A DNA stretch of 60,279 nt from Hydrurus foetidus (taxonomy: Eukaryota). Made by a program: the position numbers and the translations under genes. Shown one piece after another: positions 17 through 58,084 of this stretch (position 1 is the stretch's first letter; the number at the start of each line of letters is the position of its first letter). The stretch lies in the NCBI GenBank assembly GCA_900617105.1, contig UYFQ01000112.1, forward strand, positions 1-60,279, given 5' to 3'. The notes under the pieces were generated by a model that worked only from the letters and a program-made list of their open reading frames with translations, did no database searches and had not been told where the DNA came from.

Positions 17-1148
17 TCAGGACCTTTTCCCCACAGCTGCACTTTCCGCTTTCTGTCGATGTATGATGTATAAAACGAAAATCAATATACTTAGAATTAT
101 TACGGCATACATGGCGGAGTTTACTTTTTGTTTCTCAGCTTTTGTCGCTTCTAATTCTTCCTTTGTCTTGTAACCCTGAGATTTCTCTATTTGATCTTTA
201 AGACTCAACCCCCTTTCCGGAATCTTGATCTTCTTTCAAATACGGAAAGCTTCTCGAGTTCGTCAGGACCTCTGGGAATGGATTTCTCAATTTTATCATT
301 AGTTTCCTGTTCCACACTCTTTATTTCTTTTCTTCTTTTTCTTCTTTTCAAATTTTGCTTTCTCCTCGGCCGCCCTTTCTTCCATCTCTAGTTCATCTCT
401 TCTTTCACTTTCTAACTCCTCCTCCACTTCGCCCCTCTCTCTTTCCTCCTCCTCCTCTGGCTCGTCCTCAGTCGGGGCTACATCTTTTTCGCCACGGGAT
501 TCCGCAGAAAGTTCATCGATGACCTTGCAGCTCTGCAGGAAATCAATTTTTGGGAACTCCTCATGTATGTAGTTATTTCCCCGGTTATGAATTTTACTAG
601 GATTTGGCCCTTTCCCGAAGGGTGGCATATCTCCATACTCCTTGTACAAGGCATCTAGCGTTTCCTGTCCCTCAACAACAACACCGAAAGGCGTCTCCCA
701 AGGTTCCTTACCAAGCCAATTCAAGTATTCGAAAGCTATAAATATTTGGGTGCTGCGCGTATTAGGTCCCCCTCCTGCGAAGCTCACGTAATTTTTCTGG
801 ATTCCCATATGGAGGTTAGGGTCATCAGGAATGTTGTCTTCATGCCAGTGAAACATTTGTGGATTCACAGATATACCGAATTGAGTGAGAAATTTCTTCA
901 CGCATCTGAAGAAGGCGATGTCGGTATAGAACCCGTCTTTCACGAGAGCAACAAAGCGCTCGGCCCCAAGTGGCGCCCAGTCACTATCGCACATCGCTGA
1001 TAAAATTTCCCTTCGTGGTTTCACAACTGACTCTTGCAGTCGGAGGAGCGATGTCGATTCCTCTGCCAGTCTCGAAAATGGAAATGAGGGTGATGATAAG
1101 ATGAACCAAGCACCACCTGCGCCTCGATGAATCAATTACTGCTATCAT
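17..1148 (-). CDS. Cyclophilin-type peptidyl-prolyl isomerase with hydrophobic N-terminus, acidic linker and C-terminal TM helix; frameshifted in this sequence
   Basis: ATG at 1148 reads MIAVIDSS..LIITLISIF..RVSCETTKGNFI, then shifts frame near 988 into DWAPLGAERF..FFRCVKKFLTQFG..SFAGGGPNTRSTQIFI..WETPFG (ORF 299-1135). ORF 17-208 (TM helix) probably continues the gene after further shifts near 340 and 240. Confidence 0.8.
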
Positions 1149-1439: not shown

Positions 1440-1718
1440 TTTTGGAAATCTGGGCGATTTACACGGAATTTCTTCCGAGTTCCCAAACGATCCCTGCACT
1501 TCCGACTGCTAGCAACGCTCGCTCAAAAGAGAAGAAGACGTTCTATTCGGTAAGTTGGATTAAACGACAGTGACATGCTGTCGATTACATCTAGGTAGCA
1601 TAACATGAGTGCGAGGGTTGCGGTCAATGTTATCGCTGAATGTACGTACACCCGTGCATGAAAACAATCATACATCACACAGGGTACAAGATCCTAGTCT
1701 AATCCGGATATCCCAACA
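1440..1718 (-). repeat. 3' LTR of Copia-1 (279 bp)
   Basis: Near-identical to 7063-7342: one internal substitution, one 1-bp indel and three mismatches in the terminal 19 bp. Starts TGTTGG on the minus strand. Confidence 0.93.
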
Positions 1719-1728
1719 CACCCCCATG
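1719..1728 (-). other. Polypurine tract of Copia-1 (CATGGGGGTG)
   Basis: G-run directly upstream of the 3' LTR; the same motif precedes the Copia-2 3' LTR. Confidence 0.75.
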
Positions 1729-2133: not shown

Positions 2134-3963
2134 TTATACATTGAGCACTTGGTCGCGTAGCTCTTGGAATAGCTTCCCCTGCAGTGGCTTGGTCAGCAAA
2201 TCTGCAATCATTTCTTTAGTACTCTTGTAGGTTACAATAATATGGTCTGATTTAATTCGGTCATGCAGGAAGAAAAACTTGATGTCTATGTGTCTAGTTC
2301 TTTCACTGTTGGACCTACCGTTCTTAACTAACTGAATTGTGGATAGGTTATCTTGGTAATTTAAAGCTGGACCTACCTCATGCTCTTGGTGGATAAGGAA
2401 ATTCCTAGTCCATAAAACCTGATTACCTGCTTCAGTCATAGCTACTAGTTCTGCCTCTGTGCTAGACGTAGTATTTAATTTCTGAGTGGAACTCTTACCA
2501 TATATTGCTCCCTTACCTAGTGTTATAATACAGCCAGTGTGACTCTTCTTATCTGCATGTACAGCGTATGATGCATCTATATAGGCTATAACCTTAACCG
2601 GAGTATCTACCTCTAGGGTCAGCGGCGTAGCTCTAGTCTCTCTGATATACCGTATAGTATGCGCTAACTTATTCCAGTCGTCGGTTCTAGGTTCTAAGAC
2701 TCTTTTAGTTAGATATGCTATACATGTCAGTATGTCTGGTCTGGTTCTCTTACTTAAATATAACAACTTAGCTGTTAGTGAGTGGAATCTCTCACGTTCT
2801 TTATCTTTCAATAAAGGACTGTTAAGATCGATCTTGAATAGATTATCGTCGGCAGGTGTTCTAGACACCCCCACAATCTCTATGCAATCGTCTAACAAGT
2901 CTTTTATGAAACCTTCCATGGATATGACAACTCTGCCTAACTGCTCAAAGTTAAAAGTCATACCTATATAATTCAACACTCTGCCTCTACTCTTAGTCAA
3001 GCCTGGGTATAGTTTTTCTATCTCTGAAATTATACTATCTATACGCTTCTCATCCCTACTGCTGATCATCATATCATCAACATGGATAACTAAAGTAGTC
3101 TGAGTGGAATCTAGCTCAGTCCTATTGAATACACATATGTCTGATGGATTTACCTTATAGCCTAACTGTGTTAAGTCTGATGATATTTTATCGTACCATA
3201 ACTTAGCTGACTCTACGCATCCATATAATGCTTTCTTAAGCTTAACTACTACTGTTCCTTTCTCATTTACATACTTCTGATAAGACTTGTCAATGCTAAC
3301 TAATATGTTAGTCAAATATTTATTCAGTCTCATCAGCACTGCATGGTCACCGTCTAGTGGCATATCACTGTTGAGGAATGCACCAGGAAAATCGATCGTA
3401 GCGACCGCTCGATTTTCACTAGCAGCAATTGCAGCAACAATAAATACGCTAGTGGTGCTAACAGTTGGTGATGAACCGTTATCATATATATTTCTATCTT
3501 GTAAATGACCTCCTGCTACAAGTCTAGATTTTAGCTTATCAAATTTACCATCTGCTGTATACTTATCTTTTAAAAACATACTGCTGGTTATGATACTTTT
3601 CCTCTGATTGTAACTAAGACTGTTGAGGTGAACTGCCTCCCACACATTCTTATCACACATCTGTTGTAACTCTTTTTTAATGGAATCTACGGCTATCTCG
3701 CCTAATTTCTGTACTCCTTCTGTTACGGTCATGTTCATCATGTACTTACACATAACTGAATCTTTGTAGCTAGGTATACTTAAACCTACTAATCTCTTGT
3801 TCCATCTACCTGGCTGATGGTTTCTAGCACTACGTCTGGGTTGTTTATCTAGAATTTCCTCTGACTTGCTATTTTCTGTGGTGGGGGTATCTACCTCATC
3901 ATCACTGTCTACACCAAATATATATATTTCATAATGCATCGGGGTCAGTTGGTGTATCGTCAT
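2134..3963 (-). CDS. Copia-1 pol: reverse transcriptase + RNase H
   Basis: KSRLVAGG, TIDFPGAFLN, LKKALYG, VIHVDD, YIDASY, SSTEAE, RTRHIDIK, ADLLTKPL. Confidence 0.93.
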   Translation of the reverse strand: MTIHQLTPMHYEIYIFGVDSDDEVDTPTTENSKSEEILDKQPRRSARNHQPGRWNKRLVGLSIPSYKDSVMCKYMMNMTVTEGVQKLGEIAVDSIKKELQQMCDKNVWEAVHLNSLSYNQRKSIITSSMFLKDKYTADGKFDKLKSRLVAGGHLQDRNIYDNGSSPTVSTTSVFIVAAIAASENRAVATIDFPGAFLNSDMPLDGDHAVLMRLNKYLTNILVSIDKSYQKYVNEKGTVVVKLKKALYGCVESAKLWYDKISSDLTQLGYKVNPSDICVFNRTELDSTQTTLVIHVDDMMISSRDEKRIDSIISEIEKLYPGLTKSRGRVLNYIGMTFNFEQLGRVVISMEGFIKDLLDDCIEIVGVSRTPADDNLFKIDLNSPLLKDKERERFHSLTAKLLYLSKRTRPDILTCIAYLTKRVLEPRTDDWNKLAHTIRYIRETRATPLTLEVDTPVKVIAYIDASYAVHADKKSHTGCIITLGKGAIYGKSSTQKLNTTSSTEAELVAMTEAGNQVLWTRNFLIHQEHEVGPALNYQDNLSTIQLVKNGRSNSERTRHIDIKFFFLHDRIKSDHIIVTYKSTKEMIADLLTKPLQGKLFQELRDQVLNV

Positions 3964-5755
3964 ACACTACATCCTCTCCTTCATTAACGTATATATCATT
4001 TGGTATGTATTCTGTTAATTGTTCGAACTCTGATTCGTAAGCTACATCAGAATTGCCATCGTATGAGTCAAAATTATTTGCTATCTCATGATGCACAAAT
4101 TCGTCTTCTGTAGGGTAACTATACGGTGTTATCATGTCAGGTGTCTGCAACTCAAATTCATCGTTGGAGTAATCATTTCCATCGTCTTCGAGGATTTGAT
4201 TACTCTGTTCGAAAATAGGTTGCTTGACATTCACTGACATATTTAATTTCCTCTCAGATGCTAACTTATCGAGGTAACTGATCACATCATCTGTCATGGG
4301 TAGGCTAGTAGCCTTTGTCCTCTTCACTACTTTTAAGTTAGCTAACAGCAGATAATACCATGAACCTTCTAGGTTGCCTGCACTAACTAATGCTATTGCT
4401 GCCTGTGATCTGGGTTTAGTCGAGTTGTCCACGGAATCGGTATGTACTTGTACGTAATCACCGAAACCGTGTTTCAACTCCTTATCTACGTTAATCTTTC
4501 TACCGTATAATTTCTCTCTGGGGCTGACGTAAGCTACACTGTTTCTAGTTGGTACTAAATTTAATCTGTTCACAACATATCTAAGTAACCAACTTTCTAG
4601 TAGCTCACTCAGTGAAAAAGGTACCGTGTTGATGATGGCACGAACACGTTCCTTGATCACTCTGATCTTCCTCTCAACTACAGCTACTGCTTCTCCTGCT
4701 CCAGTACTGTCTAATATAATACCTAGTGCGGCTAGCTTACTCTCAAAACTTATGGTGTTAACTGCCGACTCTCCGTCTATTCTTATCATAGTTATCTTAA
4801 ATCCATACTTAGTAATGTGATGTATGTTGCTCTCTAAGTTCATCCATAAGGAAGACTTGTTTTTGCGTGAGAGTTTACATATCATCACATATTCTAAGGG
4901 ATTTGTAACTGTGACTAGATAGGGTATCGAGTTCACAAACATCAAATCTATGTACATAACCTGGTTCAGGAACTGCCTATCTACAACTGGCATCTCTTCC
5001 TCTAACTCAGTTTTGTGACTAGTTGTTTTCCCCTTAAGGGAACCCAAATCTGGTCCAAAAATATCTAATGCTCTAACTACATCTTGTGCTGTTATGTCAC
5101 TCTTATCTAATTTCCCCTGACCTATTAATTTAATTAACTGTCCTGGGCTGGCGTAACCTAACTTTCTCTGATACTCTCTAGCTAACTCTGCTGACTTAAC
5201 TTGTCTAGCTGTATACAGTTTCTTCTTATCCTTAACTGTCATGACCATGATCGATTTATCGAACGATACATTCTTGTAACTGACATTTCTGTCTAAGTCG
5301 CATAGATATATGTTCGTAGACTGATCATGGACAAATCTATATACAGGTCCTAACTTAATCATCCTAACTTTGTAACAATCCTGGTCACTGTCATAGCTAA
5401 CTGACTCGCTCGAGCTGACTATGTTACCGAAGGATAATATATTCGCTATACAATTTCTATCGTAGTAAACTGTTCCGAAGTCCGTCTCGCCACACTCCGT
5501 GATTATCAAGGGTTCCCCCTGAGGGTTCACTCCATTAATAATCATCGGGGTAGCGGACGGCATAATACTATAAAATAAATCTCCACTACAAAATACTGAC
5601 TCTGCTGCACATGTATCTAACAACACTTGTCTATCTGTAAATGTGGAACTGTGTGTATATACATTCGCACTAAAAATCACAGGGTCACCCCCACAATTTT
5701 TACTGTTCAGTGGACAAAAATTCTCCAAGCTGCATGCTTTATCTAACAATGGCAC
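3929..5755 (-). CDS. Copia-1 pol: aspartic protease + integrase
   Basis: VLLDTCAA protease motif; integrase D-D-E (YIDLMF, RIDGES, VERKIRVIKE); FGDYVQ. Joined to the RT ORF by a frameshift near 3930-3960. Confidence 0.88.
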   Translation of the reverse strand: MPLLDKACSLENFCPLNSKNCGGDPVIFSANVYTHSSTFTDRQVLLDTCAAESVFCSGDLFYSIMPSATPMIINGVNPQGEPLIITECGETDFGTVYYDRNCIANILSFGNIVSSSESVSYDSDQDCYKVRMIKLGPVYRFVHDQSTNIYLCDLDRNVSYKNVSFDKSIMVMTVKDKKKLYTARQVKSAELAREYQRKLGYASPGQLIKLIGQGKLDKSDITAQDVVRALDIFGPDLGSLKGKTTSHKTELEEEMPVVDRQFLNQVMYIDLMFVNSIPYLVTVTNPLEYVMICKLSRKNKSSLWMNLESNIHHITKYGFKITMIRIDGESAVNTISFESKLAALGIILDSTGAGEAVAVVERKIRVIKERVRAIINTVPFSLSELLESWLLRYVVNRLNLVPTRNSVAYVSPREKLYGRKINVDKELKHGFGDYVQVHTDSVDNSTKPRSQAAIALVSAGNLEGSWYYLLLANLKVVKRTKATSLPMTDDVISYLDKLASERKLNMSVNVKQPIFEQSNQILEDDGNDYSNDEFELQTPDMITPYSYPTEDEFVHHEIANNFDSYDGNSDVAYESEFEQLTEYIPNDIYVNEGEDVVYDDTPTDPDAL

Positions 5756-5864
5756 AAACGCAGGGTAACCGGTCGACGTTGCAAATACGTCATGCAGTCC
5801 GGTTTCCCCACACGGAACATTTACATCCTTAGCTAGTGAATCAGGTAAAAAACATATAAGGGAC

Positions 5865-7006
5865 TTACTTTTCCGAGGAAGTGTGACGCGCAGGTGCGTT
5901 CTTCTTCGGCGGGCTTCCTACACTCGTAGCCCCTCCTCCCCGCAGTTGTTGCAGCTCCGTAACGGGTACCGTACTCCTGTACGGCACCACCTCTCTCTCT
6001 GTGGGGGTGGCCTCCCTATCCCTATAGGGAGTGCCTGCCCACTTGCTCTCGCTGCCGGGGTGTTCCCTCCCGCTGTTCTGCTCCGCGGCCTCTGCCGCCT
6101 CTCGCTCCGGGCCGCTCCCCCGACTGGCCGCGAAAACGTTTCGCTTCTCCGAGTTCGGGGGAGCTCCTCCGTGGACGGGCCTTCCCAAGGAAGTTGGCCG
6201 CGTCCTGGTTGGCATCGGCCATGGTCTGCGGCCATGGCCGAACCTTATTTTTAAACGTATTTATATTCTGAATAGTTTGAATTCAGTCAGTTATAAATAA
6301 TACAGCATGGAACTCATCTGTGTGTTCTGGGGCTTCTTCGTCCGCCATCCTGTAGGCTTCGCTCTTGACGAACAGCAGCGTCCTACACCTACTATAATAA
6401 GCAGCTAGGTCCTCGTGTGCAGTCATTTTATTTGTATAGAAGTTTCTAACTGCTGTTATAGTGTTAAATGTTTCTCCATACCTTTTGTTGCTCATGTGTG
6501 TTGCAACCACACATGTCAACAGACCTAGAGGATCACATTCCTCCATAGCTCTCTTCCCAGACGGCATCTCGTTCACCCTGGTCTCGAGGCCTCTGACATT
6601 TGACCTAATAATACACCATACAATTTTGCGCAGTCTTTTATAAGTAATTCATCAGCAGCATCATATTTCTTACGTGCAGTTTTCCATCTCTCTATCGCGA
6701 CAAGACCGGCTCCCTCCGGCGGGTCTTCAGGTTCCACCTGCTCCACGTAGTCGTAGAGGATGCCGTCTATACCTATAATTTCTTTAATAGAAGATTCATA
6801 AGTACTGTACATATATACTCGAAAACATTCGAGCCATTTCAACACAGATTCTGGATCTGCCGCTTGGCCTCGTGGCAGATCCAGGTAAGCACCTACCTCG
6901 GGCTTCCTACCTTTTACTATGGGTTTATGGGGCTCGCCTTGCCCCCTACCATATCGACCCCTGCCCCCGCCACGGGACTGGAATCTCCATCGCCTCGTCC
7001 TCTCAT
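5865..7006 (-). pseudogene. Copia-1 gag, broken by several 1-bp indels
   Basis: ATG at 7006 is followed by an RG-rich N-terminus. ORF pieces 6573-7109, 6283-6576 and 5918-6235 include a damaged CCHC knuckle (CNNCGEEG). Confidence 0.7.
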
Positions 7007-7051
7007 CCTTGCAAGATTTTTGCAACTTTCTAGCTAATCTATCTAAGGATG

Positions 7052-7062
7052 ACTGTCGTTTA
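7052..7062 (-). other. Primer-binding site of Copia-1 (TAAACGACAGT), non-tRNA type, complementary to its own LTR
   Basis: Abuts the 5' LTR end (CCAACA), lacks TGG, and is the exact reverse complement of the element-sense sequence at 7184-7194. Confidence 0.8.
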
Positions 7063-7342
7063 TGTTGGAATTCTGGGCGAATTACACGGAATTTCTTCCG
7101 AGTTCCCAAACGATCCCTGCACTTCCGACTGCTAGCAACGCTCGCTCAAAAGAGAAGAAGACGTTCTATTCGGTAAGTTGGATTAAACGACAGTGACATG
7201 CTGTCGATTACATCTAGCTAGCATAACATGAGTGCGAGGGTTGCGGTCAATGTTATCGCTGAATGTACGTACACCCGTGCATGAAAAACAATCATACATC
7301 ACACAGGGTACAAGATCCTAGTCTAATCCGGATATCCCAACA
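7063..7342 (-). repeat. 5' LTR of Copia-1 (280 bp, TGTTGG...CCAACA)
   Basis: 6-bp terminal inverted repeat; direct repeat of 1440-1718. Confidence 0.95.
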
Positions 7343-7680
7343 TTGGGTCAAGAGTACTTACGCAAACGTGTGAGAGTGGTTCAAGAAGGTTCAAGTTGAT
7401 TGAGTTCGAGTTGTGTCTCGAAGTCGAAGTGATTCCTACTGGTACTGTGTCAGGTTTACTGAAGATTCGCAAGGCAGTAAGAAATCCAAGTTAAGTCAGT
7501 GGCACTTCCGTTCTGTCTCAACTGTAAAATTGACTGCGGCTTTGTTTACTCTGCTGAAATTGAAGTAGTCTTCGAGTAATTCTTCATATTTGCTAACGTA
7601 GAGCGCCTCCAGAAACGCCACACTTCCCTTCAGAAGCTAACGGTTGTCTCGAAGTCGCCTCTGTTGGCTGGAAGGATTGA

Positions 7681-13349: not shown

Positions 13350-16287
<2,938 letters not shown>

Positions 16288-19070: not shown

Positions 19071-19391
19071 GGCACAGTTGAGAGCAAGATTTTACTGCAA
19101 GAATATCAGGTAACAATAGAAATGCGCGACTCGTCAGCAACTGCCGTCCTGCTACAGCTCCATCACTCCTTCCAAAATTATTTTGGGAGTCGTTTTGGAT
19201 CACACTCTCGCCTTTCGCCTTTCGCCTACATTGGCCAATAACCGACAATCCGACAATAATTTGTGTGCTCGACGAAACTAAGATAGTGCATCATAGAATT
19301 ATCTTCAACTTACTGCTATCGCTTTGCTCGGACAGAGAAGCCTGAGAGCAATGGGTGGAACTTGTTGTCTTTCGCGTGTTCGATTTTAGAG

Positions 19392-20159
19392 ATGCTAATC
19401 CATCACTCTCGCAGAGCTGCACTTCGGGTATGCCGACCTGTTCGTACAACATCTGCTCCTGCAAGAAGATTGCACTCCGTGAGTAAGGATCTGATGCCTT
19501 CAGCTGACAGCATGCCTGCATCTGCCAAAGAATGGGAATTTCATATTCTAGAAACTTGTGATCTGTCGAAAGCATCCGACTTGATACTGTTGTCCCAAAA
19601 ATCCATCTCGGATGAGATTGAACTTGGAGGACTGCAATCTCTGCTCAACGGAGCGTTAGTGAGGTTAGGCTTGAGATGTAGATCTCGCAATCGGCTTGCA
19701 AATCCGTCCATGGCACTCACCGGTGACTCAGTGATAATCGCTGCGACATTGCGGGGAACTACTGAAATTGCAGCGTTAGTTGAAGTTCATCTACTGACGC
19801 CAGATGGAGGATACGTCCCTATGTTTGGGAATCTGTTTCGATCTTCAACTCCTGTAGCTACCGACCAACCTTATCTATCCAATCTCTGCGTTGCAAATGA
19901 TCATAGGAAGAAGGGGTTGGGAAGACTACTATGCGAAGTGGCGCAGGAACTTGTTCTCACTAACTGGAAGAAGGAGTTCATGTTTCTGCACGTCCACAAG
20001 AACAATGTTGCTGCCAATGCGCTCTATAAGGCAATGGGATATCGTGAGGCAGCGACGAATAAAAAGTCATCGAATGAGAGGTCGGACACTCCCTCATATT
20101 ACAGAGTGGCCCTAAAGCGATCATGGACTACTGATTCTAGTGGACAAAAGAATGAGTGA
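19392..20159 (+). CDS. GNAT-family N-acetyltransferase, possibly organelle-targeted
   Basis: PYLSNLCV..HRKKGLGRLL (acetyl-CoA motif A), LHVHKNNVAANALYKAMGY; Arg/Ser-rich N-terminus. Confidence 0.85.
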   Translation: MLIHHSRRAALRVCRPVRTTSAPARRLHSVSKDLMPSADSMPASAKEWEFHILETCDLSKASDLILLSQKSISDEIELGGLQSLLNGALVRLGLRCRSRNRLANPSMALTGDSVIIAATLRGTTEIAALVEVHLLTPDGGYVPMFGNLFRSSTPVATDQPYLSNLCVANDHRKKGLGRLLCEVAQELVLTNWKKEFMFLHVHKNNVAANALYKAMGYREAATNKKSSNERSDTPSYYRVALKRSWTTDSSGQKNE

Positions 20160-25500: not shown

Positions 25501-28500
25501 CTCTTCTGTCATCCTCCGCATCTCTTTCCCAATTACTTCCCTTCCTTCCTTCTCCGCCGCTACCGTAAGATCTATCAAGGGATTCCCTCATATCGGAAGG
25601 GTTCCCGCTTCTTTGAAGGGGTACAGGGCCAGCCCCACCTATTCCCTTGTGTTCACCTCTATTTCCGGCTAATATCCGATCAGGTCTTCCGGCTCCTGTC
25701 AATCTATCACTGCGCTGCCCCGTGTCTCCACTCTCACCTCTATCTGCTCCATCATCACCCCTCGCAGCTCGTCCCTCTCTTTCCTCTCCTCTCCCTTCTC
25801 TCCCATTCCTGTTCATCATCATATTACCCTCTACATCACTTTCCCTGTCTCCAATGTCTCCTTTATTTCCATTACTTTCTCTACTTTCTCTCATTTGTTC
25901 TCTAACACTTAAACTATTCTCTCCTGAATAATGTCTGCTCATCCGCTGGTTCGTAAGTTGAGCAGACGAAGAAGAGGAAGGAAAAGAAGAGGATGGAGAT
26001 GACGAAGAGACAAACAAAGAAGAGGGGGAAGAAGAGGAAGAAGTAGAGGAAGAAGGAAGATGTGCAGTAGGTGCAGTATACGGACTGTTGTAGGAACGGG
26101 AGAGGGACCTTTGGCCGAATCTGTCCCCATTCAGGGGGGCGGGACTTACGGAATTTTGTTGGGAGGTGGACAAAGGACGGGCGAGAGAGCTTGACTTTGA
26201 GTAACGATTGGGATATGAGAGGAAGAGGGGGAGAGGAAGGGGGAGAAAGGAGGAAAAGGGAGGAAGGAGAAAGGGAGAGGAGGGAATGGATAAATGATGG
26301 AGGAAGGAGGGAGGAAGATGAAAGGAAGGAAGAAGGTGGAGGGAAGGAGATAGAGGAAGATGAATCAGATCTACGGTATGTGGAAGGATCTGCCGTATCT
26401 AGCCGAGGTTTGTTACCGTGCAAGTACCCTTGAGAGGGAGAAGGTGCGGTAAAATTGGTTTTGTCGTCGGCAGAGTGCAAGCAGGCTGAGTGGGATTGGG
26501 AGGGTGAGTGGGAACTGTGCGATGAGGGTGACTGTTTACGTGGATCGGAATTAGAAGTAGAGGAGGATGAATAAGGATGAGAGTGGGGATGGGAAAGACG
26601 CAATGCGGATGAGGAAGAAGAAGAAGAAGAGGACGAAGAAGAGGAAGAAGAAGAGGAAGAGGAAGAAGGGTAAGAGGGAGTGGGAAAAGATGGAGTAGCT
26701 GAAATTGTGTGTGTGCCTCGCATGGGGATTGGTGCGACAATCCTCGGAACTGGGGTCGATGATTCTAGATTAACTGTGCTACCTGACGAGAAAGTGTTCT
26801 GACAGTCTGTAGCTGAAGACAAATTGTTCCCTCTTCGGATTCTTTCTCTTTCTCTTTTTCTTTCTCTTTCCATCTCTCTTTCCATCTCTCTTTCTCTGTC
26901 TATGATTCTTTGATCATCTCTGTCTCTCATCTCTCTCCTTCTCTTCTCCTCCTCTACCTCTCACTTCCATAATCTCTCATATTTTTATTCAGATTTTCAT
27001 TTTCATGGTCTTTACTATTGACTTCATTGCGCAACATTACTTCCTCTTTCTCTCTTTCTTTATCTCTTTCCCTTTCTCTTCCCCCTCCCCACCCCCTCTC
27101 CTTTTTATCATCTTCATTTCTCAACTGGTCATTTCCAGCTCCACCTCCACCTCCAACTTCAACTTCAAGTTGAATCGGAACATCGTTTCTTACGTCATCA
27201 GAACATGATCGAAAAGAAGATATCGTGTCGACTCTAGTCAATTGTCGGAATCTGCAGAGTACAGGTTCCGTGTGGCCTCCGAAAGCATTAGTTGATGTGG
27301 ATGCTGGAGACCCTATCAGTGAGGGTAGTGATGAATGATATGATATGATATGATATTAGGTATTGATATGTGATTGAGATGACAATGGAAATGAGAAAAA
27401 GAAATAATGCCGTCAAGCTAATTATTCTTTGACTTTTACTAAAAATAATTATATCAATTAAAATATGAGGGGTGGATCTTGAACCTTTTCGATTCCAAGC
27501 TACGTCCAAATCCACTGTGAAATCCAAACAAATAAAATCCTTCGGGTCTGAAAGTGTTATACTCGACAATAATTCAGACTCCTTTTTAGTATTAATGTCA
27601 TTGATTTTAGTGGCGGATGAGGATGATTGGGAGAGGAAGAAAGAAGAGGAAGAAGGGACGTGTGATGTTACTATCGTTCTTCTCACTTCGTAACACTCCA
27701 CTTGGGTGTCACCAAAATTCACCTGGGGAATTTTAAGGAGTACAAATAAGAAAGGGTAATATAATATAGTGTATCAAATATATAATAGAGATGCAAGATA
27801 AGATTAGGTAAGATGAAACAGAAGCGAACTAAATAAAATTGAGCACAATTGAGTTGGACAGAAAAAAAAATATTTGCTTGATGAAGCAGAGGTGCGCTAA
27901 GTTGGAAAAGTGGTCAATAAATATGGCAACGATTGAAATTGATGAAAATGATCACAAAAAGTTGCGATTGAAATTGATGAAATTACAGGAACACAAGTGA
28001 CAACAGTCACAACTATGACAACAATGACAACAATTTAGCGATGAATCAATGATCATCATTTGATCGACAATTTCATAACAGATTTCACAAAAGTGAAGTT
28101 CTAAATTAATATTGATCATGAGAGAAATCAAATGGCAGGAAAACAGGAATAGTTAATGGTGAGGTAATGGAAACAGAAATAATGGCAACAGTAAGAACAA
28201 CAGCAATCACGATAAAAATGATCGCAGTAGTCGTGATCACAATTCGTCCAGCAATGTCACAGCACAAACAATGGTGTAAAAGCACCAACATCAAAAATGC
28301 AGATTCAACATCAAATTCCGCTCAACTTACCAGCAAAAAAGTTTCTTTCTCAAAAAATACTTTGTCTCTCAAATGTTCACTGCACAGAAATCTCGTCAAT
28401 ATCGCCCATGTTAGTGGATTCTGTAAATGAGAATTCGCAGAATTCTGATCCTTGTTCTGACACTGAGTATCCGATCTATCAAAATTGCTAAGATTTTTTT

Positions 28501-29714
28501 CATTATCATTTTCATTTCCATTTGTCGACTCCACTTCATCGAAAGCAGTCCAGACACCCACAAGCGGTGTAGCGCTCACAGCAGGATCATTCTCAAGAAG
28601 GGGGACTATTTTCCTGGTTTGATTTAGAGTGACGTATCCAACCTTAGGAATATCTCCTGAAGAATTATTATTTCTTCTCGCCAACTTCAATGACAATGGC
28701 GTCGTAAGTACGGGTATTGTACGTACTTGTTGTACGTGATAAGAGATGTTGGGTAGTACTGCTTCAAACCGTATAGTACCGTTTAATGTTGCTTCATTTC
28801 GTTTCACATATCCTGCGGTACGTCACAGACGATTTATGACATGTCAGAAAAACAACTATGCAAATTAGCTGATGACATTATAAAGACAACAAAGGCGTAT
28901 CGAATGCACTGCCTGTAGTTCCGTCAATTCAATCAATTAAAAATTGCAAATAATACATAGGGCACAGACGATCACCATTAATCAGGCATTTCAGTATACA
29001 CTAGAATCCTAACTCTCCTTCACCTGCTGCTCTGACTCGCATACACGATCTGATCGAAGTGATCCGACTGGCTCGAATAGCTTTCCCAAGATTCATTATG
29101 AGGTTACTACGTTCCGATTGATTTTACGTACAGTATTACGAGCTTGTAAAATAGTTTGGATTGGATGACGTAGTATGTCATCCGCAGACACTCAGCATAA
29201 ACGATCATCATATAATCAATCTAAATGAGAATCGTAGACTGCTAACAATCATATGCTAAAATGGAATAGTTTTGGAAATTCGAAAAAGGCATTGTTATTG
29301 CTGTCGAATTCCTTACCGTGTTGAATCTTTCTCAAATAGCAGCCCAAAATCAGACAGCTTCCGAGGAGATATAGGTATGGTTAAGCTGCATTCCGAGTTC
29401 GTGCTATTGTGTCGCTGATTCTCGAAAAAATTGCCGTCCACTTTCAATACTGATGAATGTAATCCAATAATTGACTTTAGAGGGCTATGACTACTAGATT
29501 GTCTACTATCCAACTCGCTGACGTGTTGAACAACTGCTGTACGCTCTACTGTTGTGGTTGTCGAGCTTAGTTCCTCCAATATTGACTGCACAGAAGCAGC
29601 TGATATATATAAAGGCGGAATTACATCCACTGCTTTCACATAAGAAACATCGCTGATTGTGGAGCGATCCCACAGAACATCACGATTGTTCGGGAACTCA
29701 ACATTCGCTGCCAT
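22572..29714 (-). CDS. STIL: STIL/SAS-5/Ana2-like centriolar assembly protein; multi-exon
   Basis: N-terminal FPNNRDVLWD; STIL_N-like block IPVLTTPL..GYVTLNQTRKIVPLLENDP..PLVGVW..PLTWAILTRFL..KVF..FLLV (28322-28807); central coiled coil (ISNLQNQVEELKVLV); last mini-exon SVLAIQSRYL* (22572-22604) resembling the STAN motif. Confidence 0.72.
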
Positions 29715-36000: not shown

Positions 36001-39000
36001 TTAATTCAACAGTACTGAAGTCAAATTTTGATCTAAAATTACCTATTCCAAAATGTTTGAAATCATCAAATCCGTCGAATACGTCACAATTTTCAAATGA
36101 CTGTTTTAGCAGTTTATTTTCTGTGACTTCGAGTGGACAGGTGTGTGGTATGGGGGGACGGAATGCGGTCCAAGGTCCACTGGAAAGAGAGCTCTTAAAT
36201 GCATTTGAAGAAAGTGAATTATCAGATGTGAGATTTGTACGTACGTGCTTTCGAAATCCACTGAACTCAACTACACTGTGCCATTATGTCGAACCGTAAC
36301 GTATTGTACTGCATGGTAATGTACTGTACTGTACTATAGTATGTAGTGTACTGTACAGCATGACATAGTACGGTACAGCACTCTCCTCAACATCATTGTG
36401 CCACTACTGCACTTTACAACTGCACTAGACTTCACACTTTCTCACCCTGCACACAGCCTGAAGACATACTAATATGACAGTCAATAGATCACCATCGAAC
36501 AATTTCCACAGTGAACTTCTCATTTTCTGTTCCAATCCTTCTCTCCAAATCAATCTTACTTGCACCTTATTTTTCCCCTCAAAACAGAGTCTGGAATCAA
36601 GTCCAAGATCCCTCAAATTCGAATCGACATTTTCCCCTCAAGAATCGGCAGAATATTTGTCACTTCTGGAATCTGTCGGGAAAAGTTCTAGATCCACTTC
36701 TGTTAGTCTCGTTCAACTTGCCCTTTGGTTGTTACAAAAAGGTAAACGTTGTTTAGTATTGGATATTTGTGCACTGTTATAGGTCTAATAATGGACTATT
36801 TTATCATGTTTTGTGCCATATTAGTCTTCTTTAAAGATATTAGGAGAGTGCTTTTTTTATCCGCGAATAGTTGTCGGCATGGTAATCATTTAAACCTTGA
36901 CCTTGTCTTCGTCAAAGTTCTTGTGTCATCGATGTGCAATTGCCGATGATGGACATGCGATTAAACACTCTCTCCATTCTGTGCATCGTATATACTATGT
37001 ACTAAATGATCCATGGAAAAGTTCATGGTGTGGCCACTAAGCTCTTCTACTATTCTGTTCACCTATCTTCACCTCACTGAAGAATGTCTCATATGCTACC
37101 GTCTTGCTGACTGTCTGACTGTAGATGTGTATGTCTATTCCCATGCACGTTCATCTCAAGGAACATGTTCTGTTGCTGGTCCACTTTTACTGCCAGACCC
37201 ACCCCAATAAACGACAATACACACACTTTGTGTATCGTTTATATGTAAAAGTGGATGAGCAACAGAACATGTTCCTTGATCTGTCAATCCATCCTTCTAT
37301 CTGAACTCTATCAAGTCTCCCCTTCTATTTCTCGTCCTACGTGTAGACTAGATGGCATGATTAGTTATCCCTTTTGCTGCTCTGTCCGCTTGCTTTCACC
37401 TGACGGTTCTCACTTGTTGTCGCCAGATTGTCCGTCTGTCTATTTATCTGTCTATCTGTCAGTCCACATGTCTGTATATTCTATAATCAATACATGTACA
37501 CATTTTTATTCAATTCGTCTGTCACTCCTGACCAACAATCAATGCCACCCACAGGTCTTAATATCGAATCCCTCTCAGTGCTCTCTCTCGCAGAAGAAAC
37601 CCTCTCCCTCCCCTCACCCAAACATCACCAAACAGACCACCCTCTTCCCCTCTGCTCTCTTCTCATCGCCAAGCTCTCCTCTATTTATACGGGGAAATAC
37701 AAGAGCATTAAAGGAATACTAAATATTATTGAAAAAAATCCAACACCGAATGTTCTAATTCTTGCAGCGGAATATTTTGTGAAAATCAAACATGAAAAAG
37801 GTATTATATTTTAGATATTTAGTGTGTCAGAAAATTTTGTCTTTTATATTCTGTACGCCTGACATTTATTTTCGTAGGCTTCATCGAGAAATATATTCAT
37901 ACATCTAAATCGTTCTTGGCGTAACAACTGTACTCAATCACTGAGAGTTGAAAAATTCAACTTGTACTTTTTGTTTGACCAATGTAGTTGTTGAAGAAAT
38001 ATGGGACAACTTTGCGATCCTCAGTGGCTGATCATCATTGTTACGCTGGGTGCGATTTGTACCGTTGCTTGAAATCGACTTATCTATTCTCCTTCTTGCA
38101 ATTACACATCTGTCCGAAAAGTCAAATATCTTGAATAAATTCCTATTTTCTCAGTTGAATTATTGGTGCCCTTGAAGAATTTTTCAAAACAAAAGGCACT
38201 CTCTATTCTACACTTTTTCTGTATTTTTGAAATACAATCAAAGCTATTCAATTTGAAGCACTTCTTTTCTCACATTATTACATTTAATATATTAAACTCA
38301 CCTGGTGGAGTGATTTACTAATTTGCTAACTTTCTAACTCCCTTTTTTTAATCAATTCTTTTGTCTCCTTATTCCTTTTTTAGATGCGGAATATTTATAC
38401 ATCGGATCCCTCATACTGCATCCAAGGTACACACCCTACAGTATCGTGTGCTATACTTTACTATACACAGCTGATATCGACCCATACTCTCTCTCTCTTC
38501 CACCCTCCCTCTTTCTCCCTCCTTCCCTTTTCCTTCCCCCTTTTTTCCTCCCTGTTTCTCCATTCCTCTTTCCTTCTCTTTTATTTCTTATCCCTCCACA
38601 CGTCAGTTGTTCAGCGTCTCTATGGGGATATGCACACCTTCTAATAGGAAAGGGAAATCACCGAACTGCAACAAGATATCTCACACGGGTATCTTATACA
38701 ATCTCATACCAAATCTCGATACAATTTTTTCTTTTTTTGTATTATTGAAAACACATTTGTCGCGATATTAGGTTTGTGAGCCCCTCCTTATACTAAATAT
38801 TTTCAAGCAACACACATACGATGATTCTTATCTTCTATCTCATAATAAGCATCAACAGAATATTACTCTGACAGGACTTTGTTTTACTTCCCATGTTGCT
38901 TTTGATGATTTTATTCCGTATTGCTATTGATTATTTATACCGTATTGATATTGAATACTTGGTACCATAGATACCGGAGGGTGCTCCGGAGTACCCGTCA

Positions 39001-39283
39001 TCCCGTGTAGTACTGGCATGGCTAAAAGAATTGACAATCGATCATACAGATATAGGTAAGAGAAATTGGAGATGTGGAATTGTACTCTATTCCACTAAGT
39101 ATTTATTAAAGAAAGAGAATACATACATACATACATACATGCATACATACATACATACATACATACATACATACATACATACATACATACATACATACAT
39201 ACATACATACATACATACATACATACATACATACATACATACATACATACATACATACATACATACATACATACATACATACA

Positions 39284-39315
<32 letters not shown>

Positions 39316-51800: not shown

Positions 51801-52683
51801 TACACAATCCTTGAACTTCTGTGATGTCCTTCCAGTATGCGTCATTTCTCTCTGAAAGTCCCTCAGAATATCCATTGTTTGCACCAGAGAATAATTGGAA
51901 TGTTCCGTAATCTTTCCTAATAAAATGATTGATAAACCCAGAAAAAGTTTTCACATCACCCCAACCTCCTCCGTTTGGGCTCACTGTCGCAGCGAGTGGG
52001 AGATAGATGTACGGCAGTAGACCTATCAAGAAAGCTCGCACGAGTCTGATCAATACTGCGGAGTCATGCAGAATATTGGTGCGTAGCAGAAAAAGCATCC
52101 ACAGAATACAAGGAATTTCGAAAAGAACTATTGTATGCTGATTGCAGATAGCTAGTCCGCATATAAATGCTCCAGTGACAGCGATACTTTCCTTTTTCTC
52201 AATGGCGAATTTAGTGCAGAGAAAAATGATAACGGCTGAGAACATAGTATTCATAGGGAAAACCTCCGTCGTGACGGCGTACTGCCATACCAATGGCGAA
52301 AAAGAGAATAGTCCAAGAGCGAGTAGATGACCACCTCCTTTGATATCGTCAACGCAGTGGTCCAAATTGAGGAGTTTCTTGATGTTTACAGCTATGGCTG
52401 ATATGTAAGTTGCAGCGATAACAGAGAAAATAGATGATGACGCATTTACTCGTGAAATTACACTTGCCCCTGGAAGGAAGTTGATATTCTTCAGAAGAAA
52501 AACTAGGATCGTAAGCAGAGGATATCCTGGGGGATGACTCGTCCCAAGGATACAACCTTCTGCGATTAGCTCCCCACTGTCCCCACCTGCTATGGATGGA
52601 GATAACGTCGCAAAATAAACTCCTAACACGACCACAGATGCGGCTGCGCGCAGCACGTGATGAGGTTTCATGCTGAGGGGCAT
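48852..52683 (-). CDS. TMEM260: TMEM260 (DUF2723) GT-C fold protein O-mannosyltransferase-like membrane protein; multi-exon
   Basis: PSIAGGDSGELI..GTSHPPGYPL, FSPLVWQYA..EVF, NQHT, GLLPYIYLP, WGD..F..HF.RKDYGTFQL, RFWIQP; large first exon followed by small exons ending at 48852. Confidence 0.9.
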
Positions 52684-52799
52684 ACTCGGTAATATTTGAG
52701 TGTATGCGCGTCTCACTGGCTACTGGCTACTGGCTACCGCAAGAGGAGTTTCAGTGCGCGCCAATGCGAACCCAGAACCCCTCGGTGTGTGCCACACAG

Positions 52800-53097
52800 T
52801 GTTGAATATATCTGAGTATATGGCACGTACACAATGCGTGTACTTATGATTACATACAAGCGTACGGTCGAGTACGTGTGCGTACGTCGATTGGATCTGC
52901 GAGGGCTGCGAGTGCAACTGTAGTCTAGGATCGTATGTATTTGGATGGACTCGTGACTTATTCGTCGATAAGCACAGTCTAATTAACAAGTGACGACTGA
53001 TACGATAGATCTTATATCACGAGCATTGACAATCCCGAACTCACGCCGCTGTGCTCACAGTACTCCCGTCGGCCACCAGACCTCGGATTCGTCAACA
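52800..53097 (+). repeat. 5' LTR of Copia-2 (298 bp, TGTTGA...TCAACA)
   Basis: 6-bp terminal inverted repeat; direct repeat of 57663-57934. Confidence 0.93.
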
Positions 53098-53109
53098 TAA
53101 TTAGACTGT
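53098..53109 (+). other. Primer-binding site of Copia-2 (TAATTAGACTGT), non-tRNA type, complementary to its own LTR
   Basis: Abuts TCAACA; exact reverse complement of 52974-52985 (ACAGTCTAATTA). Confidence 0.8.
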
Positions 53110-53122: not shown

Positions 53123-56100
53123 ATGCCTCCAAAACGTGTTCCTGAAGTAGTGAAAAGCACAGAAGAATGCATGCTACTCTACGGAAAACACAATAACGTG
53201 ATCAAGTGGAAAGAGCACATGCAGACGATGGTAACCGAGCTCTACGGCATCATCGGGATGTTCTTTACCACGAATAAAAGATACCAACTTCCAAGAGTAT
53301 CGTACGCGGACTACTCGTCGGAAAGTGAAAGCGCCGAGTCCGTGGATGAGGACGAGGACGAGGTAGTGGACCCTGACGCACCCGCCTTATTACCAGAAAT
53401 GATCGCCATACTCGCAGCCGAGAAAGCGGCGCGAGCTACCGCGAGAGAAGCAAGAAATGGACGTAGACGGAAAATTGCCGAGAGGGCAAGAGCAAAATTC
53501 CGTGAAGACGATTACATTCAGAGGAAAAAAGACCTTAAGGCACAAAAGGAGAACGAACGTACGGTGTACCCAATGATGTGGAAACGTATGTCTCCAGCCT
53601 CACAGAGCAGGGTAAGAGAAGAGGAGCAGTACGAGCAAGCGTACTTGTCCCTGGATTGTATCCTCCTATGGTCCCTGATAAGGAAAACACATCTCACGCA
53701 CATCTTCGGGGACTCGGACCCCATGAACGACGTGAACATGCACGAACAGGAGAACAAGTACAACTCACTGAGACAGGGTGAGCGAGAGTTCATATCCACA
53801 TTCAAAGTTAGATTCGATGAACAAGTATCGGCAAACAATGGAGTAGGGGTGGCAGAGATAACGGATTCGCGAAGAGCGCTGGACTTCATCCTGAAGCTGG
53901 ACCCAAAGAGATACAAGAGGATGCACGACGACATGAAGAACGACGCACTCCGATGCGTCACTGACGCTTACCCCAAGACACTGGCGGCCGCCTACCGAAT
54001 TGCGTCTCAGTGGACGGGTACTGATCACGCCCAATACGCGGGTGCAGCAGGGAACGCCGCAGCATTCGTCACGGATGGGGCGCTGGTGACGACCAACAAG
54101 GACCCCACCGAGAAAGTACCCGGTAAGACCGGGGGTGCTAGGAAGAAGACCCCACTAAGCGACATCACATGTCACGTCTGCGGAGTTAACGGGCACTTTG
54201 CAAGAAACTGCAGCCAGCGGAAATCGTCATCAGAGAAAGCTCACGTAACCTCTACCGAGAGCCAGGATGATATTGACTCAGATGACTACGACGTAGCACT
54301 GGTTACTACAGCCGAAACGTGTCTGTTCTCGCGCTACGATATACTGCTGGATAATGAGGCATCGTTAAACATCTTCAGCAACGCAGACTTACTCACGGGA
54401 CTGAGGAAATCGGAGAGGCAAATCAACGTTGGAGGTATTCAAGTCGGCGGTGGAGTTGCCGTAACTCAGGAAGGCGATTTCGGAGAGCTAGGGAAAGTAT
54501 TTTATAGCGAATCAGCGTCGGCGAACGTCCTATCATTCGCCTCCCAAGTCGACTCTGGTGCGGCAATACGTTACGATCATCATGACGATTGTTTCACCCT
54601 TCAACCACGGAACAGTCAGAGCATCTATCGATTCGGTCGGAAGAATATACCTGGTAGCGAGGGACGCTTCTACAGCTGCGACTGGAGCGAAGTAATCAGT
54701 GAGTCGGCAATGGTAGCGACTGTAGAAAATAACGCGAAAGCGTTCACCAAGCGCGAAATTGAGCAAGCAAGGAAGGCGCGCGAGCTTTTGGCGCGCATGG
54801 GGTTTCCTACTGTGGCGCAGGCGATCGCAATAATCAACTCGGGAAGCAACTTCGAGGTGACAGCACGTGATTTCCAGATAGCCGATGCAATCTGGGGAGC
54901 AGATATTGCGTCGCTGAAAGGAAAGACAACGAAGAGAGCTACAGCCGTAGCGGACATCACTGTGAACGCGAAGATTGTCCAACAAAATCAGGTGCTCGCG
55001 ATTGATATTATGTTCATAGACAAAACTGCTACGCTAATCGGGTTAGCTACTCCGCTAGGATTGACTATCGCCTACAGCCTGAACAACCTGGACATGAAAA
55101 AAGCGGTCAGAGCAGCAGCCAATATCAAAAAGGGAATCGATCACTTTGTCGCGATGCTGGCGTCGCAGAACTTCAAGACTGCGATGATCATGAGCGATGG
55201 CGAGCGTGGAGTAACGAGCATCATTCCTGAACTCGAGGCGCTTGGAATTGAGGTGGACATTAGCGGCGCTGGAGGCCACGTAGCTAGGGTAGAAAGGCGT
55301 ATAAGGGTAATTAAAGAACGATTACGATCCTACGTCGCATATCACTTACCTTTTGCCTTATCGAGTGTGGGGATCGCCATGTGCATATTGTACTGCGTAT
55401 CGAGACTCAACTACGAACCGGCCGGAATACGGGAATGGGGCCCTAGTCCAAGAGAGGCTTTCATCGGGCGTAAGGCTGATGGAAAGAGAGACTTCAGATG
55501 TTCTTTCGGCGATTACGCGCAGTGTACAATACCCACCACTGACAACACGTTAAAGGGCAGGACGGAGGATTGCGTGGTTATGCTACCGTTGGGAAACCGT
55601 ACTGGGACCGTACGAATGATGTCACTCACCACAGGACACCTGGTGAATCGCGACCAGTTTCGAATACCACCAATGCCGCTTTCTGTTATAAAGAGGATGA
55701 ATGAGCTCGCACTTAAAGATGGGAGAGAAAAGGGGAAAGGTGATCTAGCAAAAGCGCCTACGACATACGGTATGCAGGGCGATGTGGGAGGCAGTCTACC
55801 GGACACCATCGAGACTACGACACATAACGGGATCGACCCATCGATAATTCTCAGGGACGGCGAGTATAACCCCGACCCAATAGACTACGGCGTTCCATAC
55901 GACGGAGACGAAGGGAATGGGGGTGTGAGAGAGGAGGCGATAGGTGTCAATGACACTGACTTCGCCGATGATGCTATCCCGGCATTCGTTCCACAGGGGA
56001 AGCCCAAGACCGTGGACATGGATGACCTGATACACAGCTTCGAGGGGTTGGGGTCAGGGCGGTGCGACGATGAGGGCATTGGAAGAATGGGTGAATTAAA

Positions 56101-57595
56101 CGGTGCAACGGCAAGCGCGGCGGTGAGCGGCGATAACTTGTACGAACCGCATAGCGGTGGAGTCGCGGTTGAGTCGAGTGAAACGGAGGATGAACATCAT
56201 GACAACTCGCTGAAACCAAGGCGTGAGAACATCATGCAGTTTTTCCGCAAGGGAACTAACGGTGCTGCGTTACTGACGAGGCTGTATGGCGAGCCAGGAG
56301 TCGACTGGACTGATTACGTCTTCAACATTTCAGTGAATGAAGCATTACGCACCCGTGGAAAGAACGCTGAAAGCGTCATCGAAAAAGAACTTGGACAGAT
56401 GCTGACCAAGAAAGTCTGGACCCCTGTCAATGTGAAGTTAGACGCGAAGGGTTGTGTGGTGGTAAGGTTAGATAAAGCGCTGTATGGGTGCGTAGAGTCA
56501 GCTGCACTTTGGTATGAGAATTTGCGAGCGAGCTTCTCGGATCTGGGATATACACCTAACCTTTATGACGTCTGCGTGTTCAACAGACAAAATGAGCATG
56601 GCTTGCAGTGCACTGTTGCCATTCATGTCGACGATCTACTGATCACCAGTGCATGTCCGCTGATGATAGAAGAGTTGGCGGCCGGTCTGACTAAGAGGTA
56701 TGGGGAGATCACGAGAAAGAACGGACCTGTAATGAACTACTTAGGGATGGTGTTCGACCTGACAACTCCAGGCGAAGTCAAAGTCACGATGACAGGATTC
56801 GTGGATGAGATGCTGAAGGAGTGTGGCATCACGGGAAGTGCTCGCACGCCAGCCACGGAAGGATTATTCGATGTGCGACAAAACATTAATACCGCGACTG
56901 AGCAGCAGAGAGTGACTTTCCACAGATGTGTTGCGAAAATGCTGTACTTAGCAAAGAGAGCGAGACCAGATTGCCTTACCGCGGTGTCATTCCTGGCGAC
57001 GAGAGTGAATCGGTGCACCACAGACGACCTTGTCAAGCTGCAGCGACTGATGCGATATGTGTGTGCGACCAAGGAGAGGGGAGTTGTATTCTCACCTGGG
57101 GAGTCAGGGATCAAAGTGAGTGTCCTGATAGATGCGGCATACGGGGTGCACCCAGACGGGAAGTCACACACGGGCAGTTGCGTAGTCATCGGAGAGCTAG
57201 GGGCAGTGCACTGCAAGTCATCTAAGCAGCAGATCGTGACGAAGTCAAGTACGGAGGCAGAGCTGGTAGCGCTCTCGGATTCTGCTAATCAAGCACTACA
57301 CATCAGGAACTTCGTGCTAGCGCAGGGACACCCATGCGGGCCGGTCACCATATACCAGGACAACATGTCGTGCATGGCGCTGATAGATCGAGGGCGGTCA
57401 GCGGCGGAGCGCACCAGGCACATTGCTATCAGATACTTCTGGGTGAAGGAGCGTGTAGACACAGGAGAAGCGAGAGTGGTACATTTAGGGACGAAGAAAA
57501 TGTATGCGAACATGCTGACGAAGCCACTGCAAGGGATACAGTTCCAAGAGGAGAGAAAAGGGATCACAGGGTGGAGCGATGCTGTAGTAATTTAA
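53123..57595 (+). CDS. Copia-2 gag-pol polyprotein (1490 aa) with an internal RT deletion
   Basis: CCHC knuckle CHVCGVNGHFARNC; protease LLDNEAS; integrase IDIMF/MSDGER/VERRIRVIKE; RT LDKALYG, IHVDD; RNase H IDAAY, STEAE, YQDN. Confidence 0.95.
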   Translation: MPPKRVPEVVKSTEECMLLYGKHNNVIKWKEHMQTMVTELYGIIGMFFTTNKRYQLPRVSYADYSSESESAESVDEDEDEVVDPDAPALLPEMIAILAAEKAARATAREARNGRRRKIAERARAKFREDDYIQRKKDLKAQKENERTVYPMMWKRMSPASQSRVREEEQYEQAYLSLDCILLWSLIRKTHLTHIFGDSDPMNDVNMHEQENKYNSLRQGEREFISTFKVRFDEQVSANNGVGVAEITDSRRALDFILKLDPKRYKRMHDDMKNDALRCVTDAYPKTLAAAYRIASQWTGTDHAQYAGAAGNAAAFVTDGALVTTNKDPTEKVPGKTGGARKKTPLSDITCHVCGVNGHFARNCSQRKSSSEKAHVTSTESQDDIDSDDYDVALVTTAETCLFSRYDILLDNEASLNIFSNADLLTGLRKSERQINVGGIQVGGGVAVTQEGDFGELGKVFYSESASANVLSFASQVDSGAAIRYDHHDDCFTLQPRNSQSIYRFGRKNIPGSEGRFYSCDWSEVISESAMVATVENNAKAFTKREIEQARKARELLARMGFPTVAQAIAIINSGSNFEVTARDFQIADAIWGADIASLKGKTTKRATAVADITVNAKIVQQNQVLAIDIMFIDKTATLIGLATPLGLTIAYSLNNLDMKKAVRAAANIKKGIDHFVAMLASQNFKTAMIMSDGERGVTSIIPELEALGIEVDISGAGGHVARVERRIRVIKERLRSYVAYHLPFALSSVGIAMCILYCVSRLNYEPAGIREWGPSPREAFIGRKADGKRDFRCSFGDYAQCTIPTTDNTLKGRTEDCVVMLPLGNRTGTVRMMSLTTGHLVNRDQFRIPPMPLSVIKRMNELALKDGREKGKGDLAKAPTTYGMQGDVGGSLPDTIETTTHNGIDPSIILRDGEYNPDPIDYGVPYDGDEGNGGVREEAIGVNDTDFADDAIPAFVPQGKPKTVDMDDLIHSFEGLGSGRCDDEGIGRMGELNGATASAAVSGDNLYEPHSGGVAVESSETEDEHHDNSLKPRRENIMQFFRKGTNGAALLTRLYGEPGVDWTDYVFNISVNEALRTRGKNAESVIEKELGQMLTKKVWTPVNVKLDAKGCVVVRLDKALYGCVESAALWYENLRASFSDLGYTPNLYDVCVFNRQNEHGLQCTVAIHVDDLLITSACPLMIEELAAGLTKRYGEITRKNGPVMNYLGMVFDLTTPGEVKVTMTGFVDEMLKECGITGSARTPATEGLFDVRQNINTATEQQRVTFHRCVAKMLYLAKRARPDCLTAVSFLATRVNRCTTDDLVKLQRLMRYVCATKERGVVFSPGESGIKVSVLIDAAYGVHPDGKSHTGSCVVIGELGAVHCKSSKQQIVTKSSTEAELVALSDSANQALHIRNFVLAQGHPCGPVTIYQDNMSCMALIDRGRSAAERTRHIAIRYFWVKERVDTGEARVVHLGTKKMYANMLTKPLQGIQFQEERKGITGWSDAVVI

Positions 57596-57662: not shown

Positions 57663-57934
57663 TGTTGAATATATCTGAGTATATGGCACTTACACAATGC
57701 GTGTACTTATGATTACATACAAGCGTACGGTCGAGTACGTGTGCGTACGTCGATTGGATCTGCGAGGGCTGCGAGTGCAACTGTAGTCTAGGATCGTATG
57801 TATTTGGATGAACTCGTGACTTATTCGTCGATAAGCACAGTCTAATTAACAAGTGACGACTGATACGATAGATCTTATATCACGAGCATTGACAATCCCG
57901 AACTCACGCCGCTGTGCTCACAGTACTCCCGTCG
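57663..57934 (+). repeat. 3' LTR of Copia-2, lacking its last 26 bp
   Basis: Identity to the 5' LTR stops abruptly after TACTCCCGTCG. Confidence 0.93.
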
Positions 57935-57944
57935 ATTGCACCCC

Positions 57945-58084
57945 GTTTCGTAAATTTCAGTTCGTAAATCTCGTTTCGTAGATTTCGTTTCGTAAATTTC
58001 AGATCGTAAATCTCCATTCGGAATTCCCGCTTCGTAACTCCCACCCCGTAAAAACCGTTACGGAAATCTCGCCTCGGAACTATC
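57945..58084 (+). repeat. Ten phased 14-bp subterminal repeats (approximate consensus GTTTCGTAAATYTC)
   Basis: CG(T/G)A core at 57949, 57963, 57977, 57991, 58005, 58019, 58033, 58047, 58061 and 58075. Confidence 0.9.

Follow-up and report, generated by a model that had tools for sequence, protein, structure and literature searches.

The window analysed here, a 60,279-nt stretch of DNA taken as a whole, carries a Copia element, E1 (7342-1440, minus strand), in which the bases that directly follow the 5' LTR are complementary to a segment inside that same LTR, and this raises the question of what primes its reverse transcription. From comparison with its relatives and from predicted RNA structure, we consider it highly probable that the lineage of E1 uses Tf1-like self-priming, in which the initial ~11 bases of the element's own RNA would serve instead of a host tRNA. 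The features of E1, of a second Copia element (E2) and of the host genes are collected in Table 1.

Table 1. Features of the window (LTR, long terminal repeat; PBS, primer-binding site; RT, reverse transcriptase)
Feature	Coordinates	Strand	Remarks
5' LTR of E1	7063..7342	-	280 nt, TGTTGG...CCAACA; TG...CA with 6-bp terminal inverted repeat
PBS of E1, TAAACGACAGT	7052..7062	-	directly 3' of the LTR end
Predicted self-primer of E1, ACTGTCGTTTA	7184..7194	-	LTR nt 149-159; predicted transcript 5' end
Initiator-like TCACT of E1	7192..7196	-	fits TCAHW; predicted start 7194 or 7193
U5 hairpin of E1	7069..7083	-	small, 5-bp stem, stops 6 nt before the PBS
gag-pol of E1	2134..7006	-	Copia order: gag, protease, integrase, RT, RNase H; from ORFs and translation
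Polypurine tract of E1	1719..1728	-	ends GGGGGTG; relatives have the same tract type
3' LTR of E1	1440..1718	-	279 nt; 5 differences from the 5' LTR
5' LTR of E2 (second Copia element)	52800..53097	+	298 nt
Predicted self-primer of E2	52974-52985	+	in the 5' LTR
PBS of E2, TAATTAGACTGT	53098..53109	+	12-nt complement of own LTR (52974-52985)
Polyprotein ORF of E2	53123..57595	+	zinc knuckle, protease, integrase, RT, RNase H
3' LTR of E2	57663..57934	+	shortened before its end
Cyclophilin	299-1135		host gene; E1 about 300 bp upstream of reading frame
Kinase fragment	15644-16096		host gene
GNAT acetyltransferase	19287-20159		host gene
STIL N-terminal domain	28322-28822		host gene
TPR protein	45942-47846		host gene
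TMEM260-like	50377-52719		host gene

E1 is a Ty1/Copia element by its direct LTRs with TG...CA ends, its polypurine tract, its protease-integrase-RT-RNase H order and its RVT_2-type RT (E 4e-22), which the integrase precedes. The LTR limits, 7063 and 7342, coincide with loose ends of public contigs and are independent of the PBS match; in this copy the 3' LTR terminates in AA, not CA. Because gag-pol carries several frameshifts, this copy may be inactive. The U5 hairpin exists as two alleles with a compensated A-T/T-A pair at 7081/7071 and an identical predicted fold, both of them common in public runs and present at equal depth in two of four runs (X7 and X11), and the 5' and 3' LTRs of E1 differ in the hairpin exactly at these positions. 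Since the hairpin alleles differ between the LTRs and comparison of the flanks (...GACCCAA and GTTCTT...) revealed no repeat that could be a target-site duplication, the structure suggests a recombinant origin of E1 from two copies, which may have been two insertions. E1 is present in biofilm, sediment, freshwater, air, and glacier metagenomes and in one coded organism. Contigs of run X17 link the start side of the LTR to its end side (1442; 1711-1719) across 16 or 201 intervening letters, an arrangement expected of an LTR-LTR junction or of neighbouring solo LTRs. No HHCC zinc-finger pattern precedes the integrase core in E1 (4900-5250, minus strand), E2, or the aligned relatives, all of which have a conserved helix-like block ending LKGKT in that position.

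The first-pass annotation had described an exact 11-bp complement between the PBS of E1 and its own LTR, and the minus strand bears this out: TAAACGACAGT (7062-7052) is the exact reverse complement of ACTGTCGTTTA (7194-7184) over 11 nt, at offset 0 from the LTR. The pairing stops on both sides, as had been claimed, with C opposite C and A opposite A, and the claimed lack of TGG after the LTR was confirmed. Judged by the usual motif, the site appears unlike one of the half-tRNA-iMet type. The chance of such a match had been put at about 7e-5; in our simulation, 10 of 100,000 dinucleotide shuffles (LTR nt 1-240) gave a match of at least 11 nt, about 1e-4. A published criterion for a putative self-primer is complementarity of at least 10 bp to a PBS lying 0-5 bp after the LTR (as given in PMC6317226), and E1 has 11 bp at offset 0. 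Neither tRNA genes nor Rfam matches were found in the window. Other copies of E1, which the annotation had proposed to check, were compared in 4 runs from 4 studies (3,377 contigs, 5% threshold): none of the 26 variant sites listed in 6800-7500 falls in the PBS or the primer segment, which lends the pairing little weight because the entire LTR is well conserved. An independent public contig (a loose end of run X15) has an identical LTR-PBS junction.

More divergent relatives were collected with a protease-integrase alignment of 22 proteins, scanned against metagenome contigs. The scan confirmed 276 stretches, and the best 80 of 276, representing 78 distinct loci, were kept, with five more added from prokaryotic bins. 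These five (L079-L083) are whole Copia elements on 2-6 kb contigs in prokaryotic genome bins of the GTDB set and are probably eukaryotic contamination; a scan of IMG/VR for relatives yielded none. Of the 83 loci, 54 could be tested, and 29 were left out because the LTR-PBS junction or the greater part of the LTR was missing from their contig; the LTR start was placed manually in 7 loci, and the sequence of 13 loci starts within the LTR. Together with E1 and E2, the set comprises 56 sequences in 44 families as defined by shared 18-mers. Starting from the base after every ACA site in the first 800 nt, we recorded the longest run that has an exact complement in the sequence 40-450 nt upstream.

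By this rule, 36 of the 44 families, the relatives being drawn from the best 80 of 276 stretches and the five loci of prokaryotic bins, match their own LTR over 9-16 nt, and 33 do so over at least 10 nt; the identical rule applied to 200 shuffles gave a mean of 0.91 families and a maximum of 5. When each PBS was set against the LTR of another family, only 21 of 1260 pairings matched, mostly between close sisters, and the 36 matching families have 31 distinct PBS 10-mers. TGG follows the LTR in none of the 36 (0/36), and a PBS of the tRNA 3'-end type is absent as judged by this TGG screen. Across the lineage, the complementarity and the position of the PBS at the LTR end are conserved while the letters change. 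Among the eight nonmatching families, six have a 10-16 nt match with a non-ACA LTR end or an LTR of more than 800 nt, a rescue made post hoc; L033 and L044 have no match at the expected place, the L033 contig being without that part of the LTR. In L014, L025, L026, L030, L031, L037, and L076, the LTR ends in CG, TA, CT, or TCA instead of ACA, and the primer-PBS duplex is intact. LTR ends are independently visible where the 3' LTR meets host DNA (L054 versus L063 and L017 versus L018).

In the integrase tree, a quick one with no bootstrap and no outgroup that covers all 44 families (median identity, 33%), the trait occurs on every branch. The group that contains E1 has segments of 9-12 nt, and another group has segments of 14-15 nt. 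The length of 11 nt, which the first-pass annotation had noted to be that of the Tf1 primer, is incidental and was rejected as a link to Tf1, as segment length in the lineage ranges over 9-16 nt with modes at 11 and 15. The annotation had also read the two families of the window as independent cases arguing for a conserved mechanism; conservation is borne out by the 36 of 44 families, and independence is not, as both families belong to one integrase clade. We rejected two independent origins in the window on the same grounds.

E2 likewise has an RVT_2 reverse transcriptase after the integrase. Its ORF is open and about 110 aa below its closest relatives (about 1600 aa), and it lacks the first RT motifs, likely through an in-frame deletion. 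The 3' LTR is about 26 nt short; beyond it come tandem repeats of 14 nt (57944-58097) and an ORF for a MULE transposase (58688-59374). The sequence 3' of E2 (57935-59374) is probably a Mutator-like insertion. Elsewhere in the window, various microsatellite arrays with units of 5, 8, and 10 nt are densely clustered at 39000-46100.

If the matched segment is the 5' end of the RNA, it should begin at a start site. A CA marks the segment start in 27 of the 36 families, the first base being its A or the one that follows (random LTR positions, 2000 draws: mean, 4.0; maximum, 11), and TCA stands at the segment start in 21 of 36 (null, 1.3), counts that come from offsets picked after viewing the data and from families that share ancestry. 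Five of the six rescued families, which lie outside the count of 27/36, start exactly at TC|A. This pattern supports a predicted transcription start at the matched segment. A diatom initiator-like consensus, TCAH(+1)W, has been described (PMC4686930), and an oomycete promoter study notes that an initiator is apparently present in a diatom (PMC3599244). The TCACT of E1 fits the diatom TCAHW, and that consensus would place the start at 7193 and not at 7194; with +1 next to the A on its 3' side, it agrees with the unpaired state of the A in 13 of 37 families. TATAWA was found at -45..-18 in 0/36 families, and a cap-templated C after the PBS is not supported (13/36 versus 9.0 expected; p = 0.09). 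Contigs from RNA, or possibly from RNA, run through the predicted start in the 3' LTR (X18, 1442-1811; X17, 1449-1690), although contigs cannot show starts, and no poly(A) loose end occurs among the loose ends listed.

Folding of the predicted 5' end of the E1 transcript, which had been proposed as a check, gave the expected duplex. The primer segment of the predicted RNA is paired with a mean probability of 0.95, and the primer-PBS duplex is part of the minimum-energy and centroid structures of both E1 and E2 (z, -1.9 and -2.3). The mean probability of the duplex exceeds 0.8 in 29 of the 36 predicted RNAs, and segment pairing is below 0.5 in 6 of 36. In 15 of 36 families the pairing continues 1-2 nt into the LTR terminus, and the cut site would therefore not be set by pairing alone. 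The folds bear on a variant of self-priming in which the segment acts in trans, from a second packaged RNA or a short capped transcript, or in which the copy of R at the RNA 3' end is the primer. The DNA sequence would be the same for cis and trans priming, the segment occurs in the 3' LTR as well (1571-1561), and the six predicted RNAs with low pairing do not favour the cis fold. We nevertheless regard this geometry as very unlikely, given that the cis duplex dominates in 29 of the 36 predicted RNAs and that the initiator-like motif at the segment start is expected for a 5' end and not for a 3' end; a 3'-end primer would also clash with the poly(A) tail and with strand transfer. Self-priming in cis by the RNA 5' end is the reading that we retain.

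The two arms of the duplex change together. Joint changes separate the sister pairs L049/L062, L059/L063, L067/L073, L007/L010, L001/L003, and L053/L038, and L025/L027 differ by a matched one-base indel in both arms; one-sided differences are found at the outermost pair (L001 versus L002) and also in L060, L076, and L083. Counted from the nearest upstream CA, 34 of 42 families (the 36 plus the 6 rescued) show no departure from Watson-Crick pairing between the second base and the end, and 5 of 42 have no upstream CA anchor. The internal pairs of the 37 CA-anchored families number 439, of which 432 are Watson-Crick, 1 is G-U, and 6 are mismatches, a Watson-Crick share that is inflated because the families were picked by exact match. 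Structural stems are usually richer in G-U pairs. This matters for the proposal that the duplex is a structural RNA stem, with a function in packaging, dimer formation, or translation control, and that it is displaced by the true primer, a host tRNA or a fragment of one. Such a stem would agree with the way in which the duplex closes a larger folded R-U5 domain, a hidden primer derived from a tRNA fragment would be compatible with a screen that covered TGG only, and fungal GalEa Copia elements keep a hairpin at the PBS position for which the text of PMC5445492 gives no known primer. We consider this proposal very unlikely: each of the 31 PBS 10-mers in the 36 families fits its own LTR with no TGG, the LTR end is always where the 3' arm starts, just as an initiator-like site is for the 5' arm, and a single G-U among 439 internal pairs is atypical of a structural stem.

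The probability of a chance match or an assembly artefact is negligible, for although a single 11-nt match has a p of about 1e-4 while a genome scan covers many elements, and although many relatives are collapsed metagenome contigs joined via terminal overlap, the family counts (36/44 versus 0.9 expected) refute chance, E1, E2, and many loci carry the two arms on contiguous sequence that involved no joining, and the junction recurs on the independent contig.

Self-priming is thus proposed for the whole lineage because 36 of 44 families match their own LTR, the arms covary, and the segment has an initiator-like start. In E1, transcription would start at the initiator-like TCACT (7194 or 7193), and the 5' end of the RNA would fold onto the PBS, enclosing some 120 nt of R-U5 in a multi-stem loop. 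Cleavage following the final paired base, for which RNase H would be responsible if Tf1 is a guide, would free a 3'-OH, from which RT would copy U5-R starting from the terminal A of the LTR. Plus-strand synthesis would then copy the retained primer into a new PBS, a step that would explain why the arms covary with almost no G-U pairs.

The closest experimental precedent is Tf1, in which bases 1-11 anneal to the PBS and are severed from base 12 by RNase H (described in PMC7175516 and PMC4600332). According to the same papers and PMC6317226, self-priming has been established in Tf1 and is a proposal in the case of Tf1/sushi, Tj1, and Tcn1. As in E1, an LTR-adjacent PBS complements a segment inside the LTR in Tf1/Tf2 of Schizosaccharomyces pombe, Tj1 of S. 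japonicus, and Tf1/sushi elements (Ty3/Gypsy) generally. The segment of Tf1 is 11 nt, as in E1, whereas the E1 lineage as a whole spans 9-16 nt, and priming by Tf1 rests on experiment while we infer that of E1. Tf1/sushi elements have the Gypsy order RT-RNase H-integrase; E1, with its integrase before an RVT_2 RT, is not a member.

Within Copia, self-priming has been predicted for the plant TAR lineage of Ty1/Copia (Houba, Osr-1, and Fourf), for 89% of 203 elements as reported in PMC6317226. TAR thus shares with the E1 lineage both the superfamily and the type of evidence for self-priming; TAR elements are from plants, whereas the E1 lineage is from aquatic metagenomes. YGLKQ occurs in 0 of 45 RT motif hits among 48 loci, which have LYGCVES and similar motifs instead. 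These noncanonical RT motifs (LYGCVES-type and HVDD) and an E1 RT 31% identical to that of conventional Copia place the E1 lineage probably outside TAR, with a putatively separate origin.

Diatom CoDi lineages share with the E1 lineage a divergent, algal-type Copia character and TG...CA LTRs. The RT and integrase motifs of the E1 lineage presumably resemble those of CoDiII/CoDi5; the host of E1 may be a stramenopile alga, and the element may be kin to diatom CoDiII/CoDi5. The CoDi elements (CoDiI, CoDiII/CoDi5, and CoDi6) have been described as divergent Copia of 5-8 kb with TG...CA LTRs (PMC2806351), in a paper whose main text mentions neither PBS nor tRNA and whose supplement may bear on the point. 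Fungal GalEa Copia elements with a Conserved Hairpin Site resemble E1 in having no tRNA-type PBS, but the partner of their site lies 12-41 bp downstream, with no LTR complement found as far as PMC5445492 describes them, whereas the partner in E1 lies upstream, inside the LTR. In the literature covered, which excludes most subscription journals, Repbase, and GyDB, we found no report of self-priming in algal Copia elements.

Self-priming in the E1 lineage is not categorically new, because it has been demonstrated in Tf1, a Gypsy element, and plant Copia elements of the TAR lineage have been predicted to use it. We give about an even chance to a broader proposal, namely, that tRNA-free self-priming arose in a deep and widespread Copia lineage, hosted by aquatic microbial eukaryotes, independently of Tf1/sushi and TAR, that the capped 5' end set by the host initiator would be the primer, that primer length (about 11 or 15 nt) would be a trait of sublineages, and that the PBS would be rewritten from the primer in each cycle, leaving the pair to drift freely.

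In the literature covered, experimental self-priming is confined to Tf1, a Gypsy element, and for Copia it has been predicted in a single plant lineage. A large and diverse Copia clade in which primer and PBS covary is strong comparative support for the mechanism operating with RT and RNase H of the Copia type, and it suggests repeated origins of self-priming. It is also relevant to the question, raised in PMC3601003, of whether tRNA priming descends from hairpin priming. The pairing of primer and PBS predicts the start site and the U3/R border of each element within a base. Self-primed elements would be independent of host tRNAs and would be under-annotated by LTR finders in which a tRNA PBS is mandatory.
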